Below are positions 1,958 through 9,758 of a stretch of 9,758 bases of DNA, in pieces. Positions within the stretch are counted from its first letter, which is position 1; each line of letters opens with the position of its first letter. Under the pieces are notes generated by a model. The model was not told the origin of the DNA. It was given only the letters and a program-made list of their open reading frames with translations, and did not search any database. This DNA comes from a virus. Lineage: Duplodnaviria; Heunggongvirae; Uroviricota; Caudoviricetes. The translations under genes were made by a program, and so were the position numbers. The stretch is from positions 1-9,758 of the IMG/VR virus record IMGVR_UViG_2663762948_000006; one strand, given 5' to 3'.

Positions 1958-2743
1958 TTAACCGTCATGCATCATGCTGGCACGGGCGCGCACACGTTTA
2001 TCCCGCTCGTATTTTTCGAGCGCATCCTGTAACTGGCGGTCAAGCTGTGTCCCCGGCGCAGTCCCCCCCGTCAGGCTGATGTGATATTCGTTTTTACTCT
2101 GGTCTACATAAGAGCGGCCAGCCGGTGCCGTGACCGGCTGATAAGCCTGATAGCCTGCATAAGAGCTGGTCGCCGGAATATAGTCACCGGTACCATACGT
2201 GGCGGTATGAGTTCTGGCGGCGGTCTGGTCAAGTGTGTCTGACTCTTTGTTGATAACACCGAGTTTTTCCAGTACCCAGTCAATACCACTGCGCAGTTTG
2301 TTGAACGCATTAAGCGGCAGCATCAACGCGTCAGCCAGTGCCTGCCCGAACATGACGCCCGTGTCACGGCAACGGTTCAGGGTGTCCTGGGTGGCTTTGA
2401 CCGGGGCAATCAGGTTTTTAAACCACTGCCACGCGGCCTGTAACTTTTCGCCCAGCCAGTCAAAAACCGGTTTAAGTGGCGTGAACAGTTCCCCCACCGG
2501 CGCAAATGCCGCTTTCAGCCCTTCAACCACACCACCAAAGAATGCGCTGACAGGCTCCCAGTATTTACGGATAAGCAACGCACCGGCGACAATGGCAGCC
2601 ACCACGGCCACAACCGGCCAGCTAATCGCCCCGATGGCCGTCATAACGGCACTGCCAACCGTCGTGAAGATTGCCCCCATTGCGCCTGCTGCCGCGATGA
2701 TGGCATTGATGCCGGTGATACCCATTCTGGTCGGGTGAACTGT
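1958..2743 (-). pseudogene. T: Tape-measure protein gpT, 3'-terminal remnant (about 255-261 codons of roughly 815); 5' part deleted
   Basis: The ORF ends 14 nt upstream of U as in P2 (T then U). The translation has a long Ala/Gly/Ile-rich hydrophobic segment and a C-terminal region typical of tape-measure proteins. The frame is closed by an in-frame stop at 2744-2746, so only the C-terminal third is present. First ATG is at 2723-2725. Confidence 0.8.
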
Positions 2744-3615
2744 TCAACCGGGGACGCGCCAGCGCCGCCGAACGCGTGGAAATCGACGTCAGTCATAACG
2801 CCCTTGCCGGAGGTCTTCTCTGTGCGGACGGCCAGTGGCGGCAGATTGTCACCATTGAGGACGCACTGAAAGGCGGCTGCACGCTGTTCGACATTGAGCA
2901 GCTCAAACGCGAAAACAGCGCCGACGATTTTAAAAACCTGTTCATGTGTGAATTTGTTGACGACAAGGCGTCGGTATTCCCGTTCGAGGAGCTGCAACGC
3001 TGCATGGTCGACACGCTGGAAGAATGGGAAGACTATGCGCCGTTTGCCGCCAATCCGTTCGGCTCCCGCCCGGTATGGATTGGTTACGACCCGTCACACC
3101 GTGGCGACAGCGCCGGATGCGTGGTGCTGGCACCGCCGGTGGTGGCCGGTGGCAAATTCAGAATACTTGAGCGTCACCAGTGGAAAGGCATGGACTTTGC
3201 CACCCAGGCGGAATCCATCCGCAAACTCACCAAAAAATATAACGTCGAATACATCGGTATTGATGCCACCGGCCTCGGTGTCGGCGTGTTCCAGCTCGTG
3301 CGCTCGTTCTATCCCGCCGCGCGCGACATCCGCTACACACCGGAAATGAAAACCGCAATGGTGCTCAAGGCAAAAGACGTTATCCGCCGTGGCTGTCTGG
3401 AATATGACGTCAGCGCCACCGACATCACCAGCTCGTTTATGGCTATCCGCAAGACCATGACCAGCAGCGGACGCAGCGCCACCTATGAGGCCAGCCGCAG
3501 CGAGGAAGCCAGCCACGCCGACCTCGCCTGGGCGACCATGCACGCTCTGTTAAATGAGCCACTCACCGCCGGTATCAGCACCCCGCTGACATCCACCATT
3601 CTGGAGTTTTACTGA
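2719..3615 (+). pseudogene. P: Terminase large subunit gpP, 3'-terminal remnant (nuclease-domain half); 5' half deleted
   Basis: The frame is open only from 2719 (in-frame stop at 2716-2718) and its first start codon is GTG at 2776. The translation carries terminase nuclease-domain-like motifs (WIGYDPSHRGDSAG, EYIGIDATGLGVG). Its stop overlaps the Q start (TGATG at 3613-3617), matching the P-Q order of P2. P2 gpP is about 590 aa; only about 280-300 codons remain. Confidence 0.8.
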
Positions 3616-4649
3616 TGAGCAAGAAAAAAGGGAAAACACCGCAACCTGCGGCAAAAAAAATGACCGCCAGCGCCCCGAAAATGGAGGCATTCACCTTTGG
3701 CGAACCGGTGCCGGTACTCGACCGCCGTGACATTCTGGATTACGTCGAATGCATCAGTAACGGCAGATGGTATGAGCCACCGGTCAGCTTTACCGGTCTG
3801 GCAAAAAGCCTGCGTGCTGCCGTGCATCACAGCTCCCCGATTTACGTCAAACGTAATATTCTGGCTTCAACGTTTATCCCGCATCCGTGGCTTTCCCAGC
3901 AGGATTTCAGCCGCTTTGTGCTGGATTTTCTGGTGTTCGGTAATGCGTTTCTGGAAAAGCGTTACAGCACCACCGGTAAGGTCATCAGACTGGAAACCTC
4001 ACCGGCAAAATATACCCGCCGTGGCGTGGAGGAGGATGTTTACTGGTGGGTGCCGTCCTTCAACGAGCCGACAGCCTTCGCGCCCGGCTCCGTGTTTCAC
4101 CTGCTGGAGCCGGATATTAATCAGGAGCTGTACGGCCTGCCGGAATATCTCAGCGCCCTTAACTCTGCCTGGCTGAATGAGTCGGCCACGCTGTTCCGCC
4201 GCAAGTATTACGAAAACGGCGCTCATGCCGGATATATCATGTACGTCACCGATGCCGTGCAGGATCGCAACGATATCGAAATGCTTCGCGAAAACATGGT
4301 CAAGTCGAAAGGCCGCAACAACTTTAAAAATCTGTTTCTCTATGCCCCACAGGGGAAAGCCGACGGTATTAAAATTATCCCCCTCAGTGAAGTGGCAACG
4401 AAGGACGATTTTTTTAATATCAAAAAAGCCAGCGCCGCTGACCTGCTGGACGCACACCGCATCCCCTTTCAGTTGATGGGCGGCAAGCCGGAGAACGTCG
4501 GATCGCTGGGTGATATTGAAAAAGTGGCAAAGGTCTTTGTCCGCAATGAGCTTATCCCGCTACAGGACAGAATTCGGGAAATAAACGGCTGGCTCGGCCA
4601 GGAGGTCATCCGCTTTAAAAACTATTCACTGGAGACTGACAACGGCTGA
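3615..4649 (+). CDS. Q: Portal (capsid vertex) protein gpQ, 344 aa
   Basis: 344-aa ORF, the length of P2 gpQ, immediately next to cos as in P2. GGAG lies 8 nt upstream of the ATG. Translationally coupled to the P remnant. Confidence 0.9.
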   Translation: MSKKKGKTPQPAAKKMTASAPKMEAFTFGEPVPVLDRRDILDYVECISNGRWYEPPVSFTGLAKSLRAAVHHSSPIYVKRNILASTFIPHPWLSQQDFSRFVLDFLVFGNAFLEKRYSTTGKVIRLETSPAKYTRRGVEEDVYWWVPSFNEPTAFAPGSVFHLLEPDINQELYGLPEYLSALNSAWLNESATLFRRKYYENGAHAGYIMYVTDAVQDRNDIEMLRENMVKSKGRNNFKNLFLYAPQGKADGIKIIPLSEVATKDDFFNIKKASAADLLDAHRIPFQLMGGKPENVGSLGDIEKVAKVFVRNELIPLQDRIREINGWLGQEVIRFKNYSLETDNG

Positions 4650-4654
4650 ACATC

Positions 4655-4676
4655 GCCGCCTGCGGGCGGCTTTTTT
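4655..4676 (+). terminator. Rho-independent terminator downstream of Q
   Basis: GCCGCC (4655-4660), loop TGCG, GGCGGC (4665-4670), followed by TTTTTT (4671-4676), starting 6 nt after the Q stop codon. Confidence 0.55.
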
Positions 4677-4818
4677 ACACCCCGCCATCACGCCCTCACA
4701 CGCTCATCACCGCACAAAAAATCCCGCAGACACACCAACGCCTCAACGGGCAGACTAAGCGCCGTCACGACGCGCTCAGACGCTGAAAAAATAAAATCAG
4801 CACCACCGCCAGCGCGCA

Positions 4819-4837
4819 GTGCTTTCCCCGCCTCGCC
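4819..4837. other. P2/P4-type cos site (19-nt cohesive-end sequence)
   Basis: Plus strand 4819-4837 is gtgctttccccgcctcgcc, whose reverse complement GGCGAGGCGGGGAAAGCAC is the 19-nt P2 cohesive end as I recall it. The flanking sequence toward Q also matches my recollection of the P2 left end. Confidence 0.72.
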
Positions 4838-5000
4838 CGCCCGCTTCATGGAGCGCTTTTAATGCAGTTGCAATAACACATCAAAACATCGTCAATACAG
4901 GCGATTATAAACAATAAAAAACGATCGCTGCCGCATGCAAAATCATGCACTAAATGCATGTATTGAAGGGAAATTAGGAACGTGCTCGTTTGGGTCTAAA

Positions 5001-5897
5001 CTATGATTTCGACACAACTATTTTCCCCAAATCAAAACTAAATTCGACATCCCCATTTACGATATTTTCATTTGTCACATGCTCATCAAAAAGGTCACTA
5101 ACATCATACCCCGACTGAAACACTGGGCTCATGATAGCCACGTCGGTGAATGGCTCTTTTTCATGTGTTATATAATATTGACCATAAACATTTGCAGATT
5201 CATCTGCATCATTAAGACTAAGGACTGTTTTTGCTTTGACTTCAGGCATCAGAGAAAAATCAATATTATTCAACAAACACAGTAAGATGCCTGCTATTGC
5301 TCTCCTGTTATTATCAAGCGGCATCAAGTCCACCCCTGGAATCTCCTTCCGAAGCAATATTTTCAGCTCATTAAATAAAGAGTCGAACTTAATTGCGTCA
5401 GAACAATTGAGTAACGACAAAGCTTCATTAATCATTCGCCCTTCATTGGAACCAATTTCTGATGTTAACTTACAAACACCATCATTAACAATATACGATT
5501 TTTTGTTATTAAGCTTCTTCCTCGCTGTAATTACCTGCCCCCCCTTTAAGTTTAACTTCTCCTTTAAAAACTCATCACTGAACATTCTTAATTGCAGTCT
5601 GATTAATGTAGGTAAGTATTTCGGGTATTCATTTAACTCTGGTTTAACAGCATGCTTGTCGCGTCCAAATTTTAAACTTAATAACAAATGATTCCTCAGC
5701 ATGATATCCTTTATCTCGCCTTGATCTCTCCGATGATTATGGGCAACAAAACTCCCAATTTCAAAAATACACTTGGGCGCACTCGGCAACTCACGGGCCG
5801 TAACAAAAAGAACATCAATATCACTATCAGTGAAACTCCCATCCTTTAATCTTCTCAACACTCTCTCTATTCTTGAGATTGCTTTACTTTTATTCAT
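5001..5897 (-). CDS. Hypothetical protein, 298 aa; low-GC cargo gene in the P2 tin/old hotspot position; function unknown
   Basis: Long uninterrupted ORF with an ATG start (5895-5897) in a visibly AT-rich block that contrasts with the surrounding P2 backbone. Lys/Asn/Ile-rich composition. I see no Walker A, HNH, HExxH or other recognisable catalytic motif. It lies between cos and the replication gene, where P2 carries tin and old. Confidence 0.7.
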   Translation of the reverse strand: MNKSKAISRIERVLRRLKDGSFTDSDIDVLFVTARELPSAPKCIFEIGSFVAHNHRRDQGEIKDIMLRNHLLLSLKFGRDKHAVKPELNEYPKYLPTLIRLQLRMFSDEFLKEKLNLKGGQVITARKKLNNKKSYIVNDGVCKLTSEIGSNEGRMINEALSLLNCSDAIKFDSLFNELKILLRKEIPGVDLMPLDNNRRAIAGILLCLLNNIDFSLMPEVKAKTVLSLNDADESANVYGQYYITHEKEPFTDVAIMSPVFQSGYDVSDLFDEHVTNENIVNGDVEFSFDLGKIVVSKS

Positions 5898-6177
5898 GAC
5901 ATTCTTTCAACCTTAATCAATATTTAATTTAAACAAACCATTCTCATACGCCAACCATACCTGTGACACCTGACAAACCAAATAAAAACAAAGGTACAGC
6001 GGATATTGGTATGTACAGCTATATTACACATAAACTCATGTTAGTAACATAAGATCTTCTTGTGAATATTTGTAATTTATTAGTTCACCAACATTAATCT
6101 TTCCAACCGTTATAAATCCAATCATATGCTGATACTCAAATGACGGCCAACTACCACCTCGCGCTGTTCGTTGTTCC

Positions 6178-6220
6178 CTCCAGCAGCACTGGAAGCATGT
6201 TTCAGTACTGCTGGGGTTTT
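6178..6220. terminator. Stem-loop (about 12-14 bp stem, one mismatch) followed by a T-run on the plus strand; possible bidirectional terminator
   Basis: CCAGCAGCACTG (6180-6191) pairs with CAGTACTGCTGG (6203-6214) around an 11-nt loop, then GGTTTT (6215-6220). It sits immediately after the stop of orf67 (6224) on the minus strand, but the U-tract is on the plus-strand side. Confidence 0.3.
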
Positions 6221-6223
6221 CTA

Positions 6224-6427
6224 TCAACAACGTGGTAGCAGTGCAATTTTAGACTGTTCTATATCGTTAAACCGCACGTAATTATCCCGGACTATTTCGG
6301 CACACCCGACCAACTCGTCGGGCGTCAGATTTTCGTTGACCATAATCTGCTGTAGACGGTGAACAATAGCCATCAGCTTGATATTTTTAGTGTTATGTTG
6401 CGGTATCTCGCCTGGTATTCTGTGCAT
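6224..6427 (-). CDS. Hypothetical small protein, 67 aa (from ATG at 6425-6427)
   Basis: The ATG overlaps the TAA stop of the upstream DUF3850-like gene (TAATG on minus strand), suggesting translational coupling. No recognisable motif. The track ORF (6224..6439) starts at an upstream GTG. Confidence 0.35.
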   Translation of the reverse strand: MHRIPGEIPQHNTKNIKLMAIVHRLQQIMVNENLTPDELVGCAEIVRDNYVRFNDIEQSKIALLPRC

Positions 6428-6882
6428 TATCCAAGCCACCCGTTTTGCTTTGCACGCTCAATCTGTTCATCTGAATAGTTCCATGCTCCATCCGTGGCAA
6501 CCATTGCCCCGCCAGACATCCCCGTCTCTGGTTCATACATAACAGCAAGGCCGAGCTGATGCATAATTTCATGATTAATTCTGAATACCAGACCACGCTC
6601 ACTAAGTTCTTTCCAGTTCACAATCTCATATGCGCCTGTATTAAGCTGCTCAATACTTAGCAAGACATAATCTTCCAGCCAGTCTGACAGGTCAGTAACA
6701 TCTGTTATCCGGGCTTCAACCTTTCGCCCCGTATACACACCCTGCACCCATTCATGCAAAATCAACGTGTCCCCGCGCTCATAATTACGGTCATTTTTCC
6801 GAAACTCTGCGCGTTTCTTTCCTTCCAGCACAAGGTCGAAATATTTTGCGTGCAGCTTTACCTCGTGAATTTTTGCCATCAT
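6427..6882 (-). CDS. DUF3850/ASCH-like (PUA-fold) domain protein with a C-terminal HExxH motif, about 151 aa
   Basis: The N-terminal region (KIHEVKLHAKYFDLVLEGKKRAEFRKNDRNYERGDTLILHEW...YTGR) resembles the DUF3850/ASCH-like family as I recall it. The C-terminal part contains HEIMH (6559-6573), an HExxH zinc-binding-like motif. The likely start is the ATGATG at 6877-6882, which overlaps the TGA stop of A (6879-6881); the track ORF extends 11 codons further upstream into A. Confidence 0.65.
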   Translation of the reverse strand: MMAKIHEVKLHAKYFDLVLEGKKRAEFRKNDRNYERGDTLILHEWVQGVYTGRKVEARITDVTDLSDWLEDYVLLSIEQLNTGAYEIVNWKELSERGLVFRINHEIMHQLGLAVMYEPETGMSGGAMVATDGAWNYSDEQIERAKQNGWLG

Positions 6883-8729
6883 GTCCACTCCATTACTGTT
6901 GAGAATCCCGGCCACTCATCAGCGACCGGATACGTGAATTTTTTCCCGTCATAATTTACAGTCGCGCCACGCGCCAGCGCCTCAAGCTCCCATCGCTGCG
7001 GCCTGATACCGTTCTGAGCAAGGTCAACGCGGATACGGGTGATTTGCATTCGTTCCGACCGGGTCAGTCTGGCAGATGGTGCAATTTCATGCGGTTTTAA
7101 CGGGCTTCCGTTTCTTTGCTGACGGTTTGGCGTTCTCATGTCGTATTTTAATGCGCCCCTGAGCGCCCTCACGACCTCCGGTTCATTCCATTCAATAACA
7201 CCGTCATCAACCAGATTAAGCACTGCTGCGGCGTGCTCAGAAGGTGTGGGAGCCGGTAACGAAGTATCACCACCGGTGAGCTTTCCACAGTTATTGACAG
7301 GACTCCGAGGCGCGGCGATGCCGCTTTTTAAAGTCAAAGGCTCAACGACCGGAACTTTCGGCACAATGCGCCAGTCCGTCGTTCTGGTGATATGAATATG
7401 ACGCGCGCCGAGATGCGGCGCGTAAATGCCGACCACTCTCTCGACTTCTTCCTCGTACTCGTTAACGTCATCCGACGGGCTACGGGCAACCCTGACAGTC
7501 TGACAATCGCGCGGGACATTTGCCCCACCCTGCGCGCTGATATACAACGCAAAATCACCACTGTCTGCGGCAGCGCGAGCAGCCTCGACGCGTTCGTCAA
7601 ACTCATCAGCAATACTGACGCCGCGAGGCAATTTGCGTAGTTCACGGTAAGCCCCCATTGTCGGCAGTCCAACCGTTTTAAATTGCGGGATGCGCCACGT
7701 TGACGCCCATGCGGTAACAGCCGCGGCAGTATCTTTAAGCGGCTTACCGGTATCGTTATCGAGCTGACCATCCAGTGCATAGCCGTCGATATTTTTTGAA
7801 ATGTATTTCGCGATATATCCCGCAGCACCGCCCCGGTTAAGGTGCTTTGCCTGAAAACGGTTTCGCGCGGCTCCTCTTTCGTCACCATCCTCTTTGAGCG
7901 CATAGCGACGCATGATTTCGATAATCTGGTTACGCTGGCGTGGATTACAAAAAAGCATCATATGCCAGTGCGGCGTTCCGTCGTGGTGTGGCTCGACGAC
8001 ACGCAAACCGTAGACCTGTAAATCATTATCCTTGAATGCCGTGCGCATCAGGCTCCAGATGCGGCAGAGATAACGCTGCGCATCCTTTGGATTAAATGCC
8101 TCATCGTTCCAGCCGTGATTAAGCTGAACGGTTTTACTTTCGCCTTTTCTGACCTGACGAGTCGGGTGATACTTTGACGGCGCGGTCAGCGTGATAAACA
8201 TCCCCACATCACCCTCTGCGGCGGCGTAACGCTCAATACCGGCAATGGTGTTCATCAGCTCCATCCGGCGAATTTCAGGATTAGAAATACTGCCCATCAC
8301 CTTACTGATAAGGTCGATGCGCTCGCCGGTTTCCCTGTTTTCAAGGTCACACGATTTAAGAAATTCCAGATTTGCCTGGCGGCGCGCACGCACATCACGA
8401 ATGGCGTGTTTACTGGCATACATCATGAAAAGCTGCGATGAGATACGGGCGGCAAACTTTTTCAGCTCCTTGTCATTCATTCCCGGCAGGCGCGCATAGT
8501 GGTCACGCTCTGCCAGAAACAGCAACGACGCGTCGGTGTTCATTTCATGGCGCTGATTCACACGCTCAATGCGCGGCCATAAACGACGCTGAAAAGTGGA
8601 TGTGAGAAAATAAAACCCGTGCACCGGGCTTTTATTACGCCGGATGTAGTCATAGCGTGAAGTAAACAGCGAGCGCAAAAAGTAAGGCAGGCGATTTATC
8701 GTGGATAACTCTATATAAAAATTACATTT
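6879..8729 (-). pseudogene. A: Rolling-circle replication initiator gpA, 5'-truncated (about 600-616 C-terminal codons of 761 retained)
   Basis: The translation contains the paired-tyrosine motif GYIAKYISK (Y288 and Y292 of the track ORF). P2 gpA is 761 aa with active-site tyrosines that I recall as Y450 and Y454; the offset of 162 plus 599 equals 761, so the C-terminus aligns exactly. The frame is closed by a stop at 8730-8732, the first start in frame is TTG (8676-8678) with no SD, and no B, cox or C genes lie upstream. Confidence 0.8.
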
Positions 8730-8755
8730 TCACCATTTGCCACCAAGATGGTGAA
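8729..8755. promoter_or_regulatory. Nested inverted repeat immediately upstream of int (possible operator or protein-binding site)
   Basis: TTCACCA (8729-8735) and TGGTGAA (8749-8755) are 7-bp inverted arms 13 bp apart; nested inside is CACCA-AGA-TGGTG (8741-8753). It lies 23 nt upstream of the int ATG within the A'/int junction region. Function is inferred only. Confidence 0.25.
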
Positions 8756-8777
8756 TACAGCGCCGGAGGGCTTTCTT

Positions 8778-9758
8778 ATGGCAATTAAGAAGCTCGATGA
8801 TGGTCGCTATGAAGTGGACATTAGACCTCGCGGTCGCGACGGAAAACGCATCCGCAGGAAATTTGAAAGAAAAGCTGAAGCACTAGCATTTGAGCGATAC
8901 ACAATCGCCAATGCCAGTCAGAAAGAATGGGGAGGCCAGCGAGCAGACCGCCGAACTTTGACAGAATTGCTCGACATCTGGTGGAAATACCACGGGCAAA
9001 ACCACGAGCATGGGACAAAAGAGTTTAATCATCTGCTCAAAACCATCAGCGGCATAGGTGATATACCAGTGAGTCGGATGAACAAAAGGGCTTTGATGGA
9101 TTATCGCTCCATGCGACTACGTGATGGCATCAGTGCTGCAACGATAAACCGCGACATGTACCGATTATCCGGCATGTTCACAAAATTAATTCAATTGGAT
9201 GAATTTTCCGGGCAACACCCAATTCACGGACTGCCGCCACTGACGGAGGCTAACCCTGAAATGACGTTCCTGGAAAAAGCAGAAATCGAAAAACTGCTAA
9301 ATGTTTTGACTGGTGATGACTTACTTGTCGCGCTTTTATGTCTGAGCACTGGAGGAAGGTGGACGGAAGTTGCCACGCTAAAACCAGCACAGATTACAAG
9401 TTGCAGGGTTACCTTCCTGAAAACCAAAAACGGTAAAAAGCGAACAGTGCCGATTTCTGAGGAACTGGAGAAAAAAGTTAAAGAGGAGGCCAGCGCCAAA
9501 TTGTTCAAGGTAGATTATGAGAAGTTTTGCGGGATTTTACGCAGAGTGAAACCTGATATACCTCCCAATCAGGCAACCCACATTCTGCGGCATACATTCG
9601 CAAGCCATTTCATGATGAATGGGGGCAACATAATTGCACTGCAACAGATTCTGGGGCATGCGAGCATTCAGCAGACAATGACCTATGCGCACCTTGCGCC
9701 TGACTACCTGCAGAACGCCGTCGCTCTGAATCCACTAAAAGGCGGAGTGACGTTATAA
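8778..9758 (+). CDS. int: Tyrosine recombinase, P2-type integrase (326 aa from ATG 8778; alternative start ATG 8748 gives 336 aa)
   Basis: N-terminus MAIKKLDDGRYEVDIRP... matches my recollection of P2-family Int. The C-terminal catalytic region carries the tyrosine-recombinase signature (HILRHTFASHFMMNGG...LGHASIQQTMTYAHL). GGAGGG lies 8 nt upstream of ATG 8778; the upstream ATG at 8748 has no SD. Confidence 0.9.
   Translation: MAIKKLDDGRYEVDIRPRGRDGKRIRRKFERKAEALAFERYTIANASQKEWGGQRADRRTLTELLDIWWKYHGQNHEHGTKEFNHLLKTISGIGDIPVSRMNKRALMDYRSMRLRDGISAATINRDMYRLSGMFTKLIQLDEFSGQHPIHGLPPLTEANPEMTFLEKAEIEKLLNVLTGDDLLVALLCLSTGGRWTEVATLKPAQITSCRVTFLKTKNGKKRTVPISEELEKKVKEEASAKLFKVDYEKFCGILRRVKPDIPPNQATHILRHTFASHFMMNGGNIIALQQILGHASIQQTMTYAHLAPDYLQNAVALNPLKGGVTL

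Follow-up and report, generated by a model that had tools for sequence, protein, structure and literature searches.

An inverted repeat upstream of int in a deleted P2-like prophage corresponds to a predicted RNA stem-loop conserved in the C-int spacer

Introduction

What is the short inverted repeat that stands directly in front of the integrase gene in a heavily deleted P2-like prophage: a protein-binding site in DNA, a hairpin in RNA, a product of the deletion, or a palindrome with no function of its own? P2-type prophages show great stability and are not inducible, and their weak, non-inducible int expression has long been noted. To our knowledge, it has never been fully worked out how integrase stays low in these prophages despite the co-transcription of int with the repressor gene. 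The stretch of DNA analysed here (9,758 nucleotides, called the window below) is a P2-like prophage with heavy deletions and spans from just inside attR to the int stop codon. An earlier sequence-only reading had noticed a nested inverted repeat upstream of int, placed it at the deletion junction and proposed that it might be a binding site for a dimeric regulator or for Int/IHF, or an RNA hairpin affecting int translation. Here we describe the origin of the repeat, its conservation among relatives and the functions that it may have.

Results

The layout of the window was obtained by piecewise alignment to phage vB_EcoM-12474III plus Pfam matches. The ogr-D-U-T' genes occupy positions 3-2720 on the minus strand and P'-Q occupies 2719-4878. 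A cargo segment lies between P'-Q and a truncated gpA gene (6879-8678, minus strand). The gpA gene of vB_EcoM-12474III (L002 8614-8905) aligns with window positions 8417-8708, and the C end and int of the same phage (L002 11522-12578) align with 8702-9758. The two alignments overlap in TGGATAA (8702-8708, no strand assigned), which belongs both to the gpA gene and to the last 7 nt of C, where the end of C reads TGGnTAA with the stop codon. Since the two alignments share this sequence, the deletion took out everything between them by way of a 7-bp microhomology, which joined the truncated gpA to the last bases of C. The first ~53 codons of gpA, the early genes, cox, Pe/Pc and C are missing as a result. 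The same junction was absent from the 5,426 complete E. coli genomes searched and was not found in IMG/VR. It was also absent at 10 places among the matches listed for the exact Int protein. All 10 are intact prophages next to cpxP in which a C gene of 97 aa lies 69 nt upstream of int, and the exact Int protein is widespread in such intact prophages.

The repeat does not belong to the junction. It lies 21 nt downstream of 8702-8708, in native spacer sequence. Over 8702-9758, which covers the C end, the spacer and int, identity between the window and P2-like phages is 94-99.7%, and positions 8709-8777 are the normal 69-nt C-int spacer of the Wphi/L-413C type. The int gene starts 69 nt past the C stop in L-413C, Wphi, SEN4, phiT5282H and the O157:H43 'P2'. 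The sequence-only reading had allowed that the repeat could be simply part of the C coding sequence in P2; the alignments point elsewhere, with C ending at the equivalent of 8706-8708. Because the C stop falls there and int begins 69 nt later, the repeat sits in the C-int spacer, outside C. By alignment, the hairpin that it encodes belongs to the native C-int spacer of one branch of P2-like phages and was not made by the deletion. The comparison with P2 that had been suggested gave a divided answer: the repeat is native in the Wphi/L-413C-type spacer, and the spacer of canonical P2 differs (see Discussion). The same hairpin precedes int genes of 326 aa and of 340-341 aa, which have different att regions.

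The 7-bp inverted repeat is present as described, with TTCACCA at 8729-8735, TGGTGAA at 8749-8755 and a spacer of 13 nt, and its end at 8755 is indeed 23 nt from the int ATG (8778-8780). The perfect repeat is longer than had been noted, 8 bp (TTCACCAT/ATGGTGAA) with a spacer of 11. Its RNA form is a 10-bp stem (8729-8738/8746-8755) made of eight perfect pairs, one T·G and one T-A, which closes a 7-nt loop. On the plus strand, fold and alignment give the 5' arm UUCACCAUUU at 8729-8738, the loop GCCACCA at 8739-8745 (family consensus G-Y-Y-A-C-C-A) and the 3' arm AGAUGGUGAA at 8746-8755. The predicted energy of the stem-loop is -11.8 kcal/mol. The MFE and centroid folds agree on the 10-bp stem, which persists in a 132-nt context, and the stem is AU-rich with only four G-C pairs.

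Taken alone, the repeat is not above chance. Perfect 7-bp inverted repeats spaced by 3-20 nt number 12 in the whole window, and dinucleotide shuffles give 14.2 +/- 5.5. In 30-nt windows, 25 plus-strand places have folds as good or better. In the 56-nt core of the spacer the fold reaches a z of -3.6, with 2 of 200 shuffles equally good. The real support for the hairpin is the comparison with relatives rather than the repeat alone.

Relatives were collected from IMG/VR with a pattern whose anchors were the 5' conserved box and the Shine-Dalgarno sequence (SD), with a second pattern anchored upstream only, and from metagenomes with a third pattern anchored on SD and ATG only. GTDB genome loci found with the Int protein were added. 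In a first set of 54 distinct sequences 93.7% of outer-stem cells were paired. Changes on both sides were seen in 21 cells against 7.4 +/- 2.1 after shuffling, and none of 500 shuffles reached 21, a statistic that overstates the significance as the sequences are closely related and recombining. Slid registers paired in only 39-57% of cells of the same set. For four of the ten pairs (8729-8732) the 5' side was prescribed by the first search pattern; in the right-anchored subset (n = 27), where the hairpin was unconstrained, pairing was 90%.

Across 69 distinct sequences the paired share of outer-stem cells was 92.6%. At 8734/8750 there are 39 sequences with U-A, 17 with C-G, 11 with U·G and 2 with A·A. 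At 8737/8747 the counts are 55 for U·G, 12 for C-G and 2 for U-A, and at 8738/8746 they are 49 for U-A and 20 for U·G. The terminal pair 8729/8755 is often open. Full compensatory change was seen at one pair only, 8734/8750. This pair has at least nine state changes on a neighbour-joining tree built from flanking columns only, and its C-G state is spread over at least four distinct clades of the flanks. The stem has 99 G·U cells and 7 A·C cells, and 92.6% of cells pair on the plus strand versus 79.3% if the alignment is read on the minus strand. With G·U in such excess over A·C, the int-sense strand is the only one on which the pairing makes sense. In the phiT5282H lineage an A·G mismatch at 8732/8752 interrupts the stem, and there a bulge of A8732 restores a stem, now of 12 bp. 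A purely structural role would not require as much sequence conservation as the 5' arm and loop show, and in L019, L031 and L421 the 5' segment persists without the 3' arm. It was concluded from these alignments that pairing of the predicted stem is maintained by selection on the int-sense strand. Pairing maintenance and strand specificity, two of the marks of a conserved cis-acting RNA secondary structure, were thus both found for this putative element.

These data bear on the possibility that the element has no function of its own and is a palindrome inside the conserved junction of the immunity and integration modules, with incidental pairing. The chance level of the repeat and the three relatives without a 3' arm would agree with this, as would the lack of a stable hairpin in some spacer types and the unusual conservation of the whole spacer across differing C and int alleles, as at a recombination junction. 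Incidental pairing does not readily account for the repeated switching of 8734/8750 among C-G, U·G and U-A across flank backgrounds with almost no disruptive states, for the strong excess of 99 G·U over 7 A·C cells, or for the register-shifted stem that survives in the phiT5282H lineage. The linker beside the hairpin varies freely, which means that conservation here is not uniform hitch-hiking. We consider an element without function unlikely.

The inner 5-3-5 palindrome (CACCA at 8741-8745, AGA, TGGTG at 8749-8753; 8741-8753 on the plus strand) is present in the window, as the sequence-only reading had it, and as a feature it is not conserved, being broken in most relatives. The inner pair 8744/8750 is a C·A mismatch in 41 of the 69 relatives, and the inner helix has no both-side changes among them. 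The G-to-A change at 8750 is compensated at its outer partner 8734 and left uncompensated at its inner partner 8744, which argues that the nested palindrome is a by-product of the C-G variant of the predicted outer stem that the window happens to carry.

The int gene (8778-9758, plus strand) encodes a tyrosine integrase of 326 aa with the Wphi/L-413C (cpxP-site) specificity. Integration of this type next to cpxP is consistent with PMC3448106. The ORF list starts int earlier, at an in-frame ATG (8748) that falls within the 3' arm of the stem. This ATG is not conserved (it reads ATA in 41 of the 69 relatives), and 8764, directly ahead of the SD (GGAGGG, 8765-8770, plus strand, upstream of the ATG at 8778-8780), is where homology to more distant int genes sets in. 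The start of int is therefore 8778 and not 8748.

The hairpin is flanked by other leader elements on the plus strand. Directly 5' of it lies an AU-rich leader segment (CTnTATAAAnATTACATTT, 8709-8728), nearly invariant and predicted to be single-stranded, which is retained in the distant relatives L019 and L031 whose 3' arm differs. On the 3' side a variable 9-nt linker (8756-8764) holds the least conserved alignment columns of the region. In a second stem-loop at 8768-8795, identified by its fold, by pairing in relatives and in canonical P2, int codons 3-6 are the partners of three SD G's and of the A of the AUG (8778). Pairing holds in 97% of its cells, with a C-G to U-A change at 8771/8792. 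RNAalifold pairs 8725-8731 with int codons 7-9, enclosing both hairpins, in preference to the outer 4 bp of the first stem; both sides of this long-range pair are invariant, so that no covariation signal is possible.

The first hairpin is single-copy per genome, always ~10 nt upstream of the int SD. A repeated element elsewhere in the phage was considered and rejected, the extra motif matches in 3.1 Mb of loci being the same site read on the opposite strand. Rfam covariance models gave no family for the hairpin, only chance snoRNA matches with E > 1 on the opposite strand. We also asked about the same position in other phages. Among 24 unrelated spacer types before the same kind of int SD, folding was on average better than in shuffled versions (mean z -0.86, with 5 types below -2), and several types have a 5-9 bp hairpin 8-20 nt before the SD. 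This survey was cleaner than one of 80 GTDB loci, in which the inclusion of C coding sequence brought too much noise. Stem-loops are frequent at this position and not universal; the idea of a universal hairpin before every P2-family int was dropped, the spacer types showing enrichment and not universality.

The position of the first hairpin, which ends 10 nt before the SD (8765-8770), raises the possibility that integrase binds the stem-loop in its own mRNA and represses its own synthesis. Such an operator would fit the closeness to the SD and the sequence conservation of the loop (G-Y-Y-A-C-C-A) and 5' arm, which resembles that of protein-recognised RNA operators, and P2 Int is cited in a passage of PMC11789052 as autoregulating through binding of its own mRNA. 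Int's N-terminal domains are near-identical across P2-like phages, yet the hairpin of canonical P2 is unrelated in sequence. The occurrence of one hairpin before int genes of 326 and 340-341 aa with different specificity also speaks against an Int operator, as does its lack of resemblance to the arm-type site tgTGGaCa. The stem of a translational operator takes in the SD or start codon; by the model folds, the first hairpin does not do so and the one at 8768-8795 does. Because canonical P2 lacks the sequence of the first hairpin and has nearly the same Int N-terminus, the universally conserved SD/AUG hairpin would be the better candidate for an Int target. An Int operator at the first hairpin is thus held to be doubtful.

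A dimeric protein (the Int core-binding domain, IHF or another regulator) might also bind the repeat as DNA and either block transcription into int or modulate it. The geometry would suit such a site: arms of 8-10 bp surround a 7-bp centre (10-7-10), as in a core att site, and GATGGTG, a 7-mer in the right arm, is also present beside cpxP, where the cpxP-type attP/attL core has its right edge. In phages whose hairpin has the GATAGTG or GATGGGG variant, the att regions contain no matching 7-mer, and GATGGTG is likewise missing from the att of a phage that has the GATGGTG hairpin together with a different int and att. A mimic of the Int core site was rejected on this failure to co-vary across hairpin variants and int types, and from the sequences compared we take the GATGGTG match to be a coincidence. 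The IHF consensus WATCAANNNNTTR has no match with up to one mismatch within 8700-8780 (5 matches in the whole window versus 9.0 expected). The arm-binding site of P2-type Int is tgTGGaCa, usually in direct repeats (PMC3448106). It has no match with up to one mismatch in 8700-8780 either, and the true arm sites of relatives (TGTCCACA, two copies) are located 3' of int. The commonest state of 8737/8747, T:G, is a mismatch in DNA and a wobble pair in RNA. Binding of a dimeric regulator, Int or IHF, as originally proposed, found no support in these searches, and we regard a DNA-level site as quite improbable.

A scan of both strands found no sigma-70-like promoter at the hairpin, and there is no promoter-like site within 8400-8900. 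The position between a highly and a weakly expressed gene would fit an intrinsic terminator or attenuator that reduces read-through from C into int. The stem is followed by UACAGCGCC, without a U-tract, and scanning of both strands found no terminator-like site at 8729-8765. With its four G-C pairs the element lacks the G+C-rich stem followed by a U-tract that defines a Rho-independent terminator, and the analogous hairpin of canonical P2 is followed by an A-rich tract. A terminator is the least probable of the alternatives, and we give it hardly any weight.

Discussion

The repeat upstream of int is best read as the DNA image of a conserved RNA stem-loop of 9-10 bp with a 7-nt loop, which would help to set int expression in cis. 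We put the probability of this reading at roughly 0.6, on the strength of the comparison among relatives. The proposal of an RNA hairpin affecting int translation is upheld in its first part by the C-G/U-A exchange at 8734/8750, the G·U pairs and the register shift. A direct effect on translation is not evident, because the hairpin leaves the SD and AUG of int uncovered.

In intact phages the region lies by annotation inside the Pc-C-int operon, where the hairpin would be transcribed from Pc within the C-int mRNA and would act in cis after transcription. The role that we favour is an intercistronic stability or insulator element between C and int. Such an element may uncouple two cistrons, the abundant C and the weakly expressed int, either by blocking exonucleolytic decay or by blocking ribosome run-on from C. 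It might also free the SD/AUG hairpin (8768-8795) to form independently and set translation. The AU-rich stem, at -11.8 kcal/mol, is weak as an exonuclease barrier.

A further, speculative and rather unlikely reading joins the AU-rich box, the first hairpin and the SD/AUG hairpin into an int leader riboregulator that sets the dosage of integrase. Its effector could be the tyrosine recombinase or a host RNase, for example RNase E, which might cut at the conserved ACA|UUUU just 5' of the stem. If true, a riboregulator would explain the weak, non-inducible int expression of P2-type prophages.

Returning to the cis-acting stem-loop, a conserved and unannotated leader structure is a concrete target for mutation. 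In the window itself the element is probably silent, a vestigial relic: with the loss of Pc and C and no promoter-like site upstream, it is most likely unexpressed here. The practical consequence in the window is small, since the promoter of the element is lost. For annotation, the in-frame ATG at 8748 should not be used as the int start, and the repeat should be read as inherited phage sequence and not as a signature of the deletion.

The closest system for comparison is the spacer of canonical P2 (NC_001895, 25476-25590). It has at the same position a stem-loop with a 7-nt loop (GGUGGCU-AAAUUUC-AGCCACC, 8-bp stem), followed by the SD/AUG hairpin that it shares with the window. It differs in length (115 nt versus 69 nt) and can be aligned with the window only at the SD and around the C stop. 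Yu, Barreiro and Haggard-Ljungquist (1994, J Virol 68:4220) reportedly described autoregulation of P2 int at the mRNA level. In the passage that refers to this work, int expression of P2 is autoregulated by the protein binding its own mRNA (Yu et al. 1994, cited in PMC11789052). As far as that passage goes, post-transcriptional control of the int gene does exist. The P2 case and the window hairpin would share the gene family, the Pc-C-int transcript and a post-transcriptional mode of action; they differ in that canonical P2 is without the hairpin sequence of the window.

Two other kinds of element offer looser parallels. In the sib retroregulation of lambda, a hairpin 3' of int is an RNase III substrate and acts in a manner that depends on the integration state. 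The likeness to the window is an RNA hairpin in a temperate phage with a presumed post-transcriptional role in integrase expression. Unlike sib, the window hairpin lies on the 5' side of int and is not long enough for RNase III. Intercistronic stem-loops that tune differential expression within operons are known from the REP hairpins of malE-malF and the hairpins of the puf operon. Compared with these classic decay barriers the stem in the window is much shorter and more AU-rich, and its 5' arm and loop are conserved in sequence as well. The likeness is a moderately stable hairpin in an untranslated spacer between a gene needed abundantly (C) and a gene needed sparingly (int), conserved in structure with compensatory change and without a terminator U-tract. 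Within a phage family that has been studied in depth, the hairpin is an unannotated example of a familiar kind of element, the conserved leader or intercistronic RNA hairpin.

Translation start of int

A second stem-loop is found on the int-sense strand at 8768-8795, together with 8764-8765/8798-8799. In it, int codons 3-6 pair with part of the SD sequence GGAGGG (8765-8770) and with the A of the AUG. Across 69 relatives, 97% of cells (base-pair positions × sequences) are paired, and pair 8771/8792 shows a C-G to U-A change. This stem-loop is likely a translational brake on int. An in-frame ATG at 8748-8750, within the 3' arm of hairpin 1 (the RNA stem-loop at 8729-8755 in the C-int spacer), would add 10 codons to the int ORF. 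It has no SD sequence and is not conserved, being ATA in 41 of the 69 relatives. Some database records place the int start 5' of the true ATG, e.g., that of phage SI7, annotated from GTG.

AU-rich box and Int-related sequences

A near-invariant AU-rich box, CTnTATAAAnATTACATTT (8709-8728), lies 5' of the hairpin and is kept in two distant relatives (L019 and L031) in which another sequence replaces the hairpin 3' arm. RNase E prefers to cleave at RN|WUU, which the ACA|UUUU in the box resembles in sequence. Matches of 7/8 to the Int arm-site consensus tgTGGaCa occur at chance level in the window (5 found vs 7.75 expected). One of them, AGTGGACA at 8813-8820, lies in int codons 12-14 (E-V-D), where the conserved coding sequence for YEVDI keeps it fixed. 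In relatives, attP/attL identity with the host stops directly after ...GACAGGGATGGTGTC, beside the terminator of the host gene cpxP (phage vB_EcoM-12474III, 12700-12760; L215, 2690-2720). The 7-mer GATGGTG at this edge is identical in sequence to the right arm of the hairpin. Among the relatives compared, the att-edge GATGGTG did not co-vary with the hairpin variants.

Deletions and cargo

Three deletion junctions render the prophage defective: T'/P' (2719-2720; all head and most tail genes are gone), a site inside gpA (8417-8420; internal loss of about 294 bp) and gpA'/end of C (8702-8708). The last junction had no match in any other genome searched (5,426 complete E. coli) or viral contig (IMG/VR). 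The P2 'tin/old' cargo hotspot, flanked by Q and a DUF3850/ASCH gene, carries a 298-aa ORF (5001-5897, minus strand) with no match in Pfam or PADLOC. It lies within a segment (4879-6260) that has no counterpart in vB_EcoM-12474III, and may represent a cargo or defence gene not yet characterised.

Comparison with canonical P2

The C-int spacer of canonical P2 (NC_001895) is 115 nt and unrelated to that of the window. At 1030-1060 of the NC_001895 locus L015 (minus strand) it has a hairpin of 8 bp, GGUGGCU-AAAUUUC-AGCCACC (spacer z -3.4), and a small GCGAU/GUCGC hairpin comes next; the RefSeq record annotates neither. Canonical P2 also carries an SD/AUG stem-loop equivalent to that at 8768-8795.
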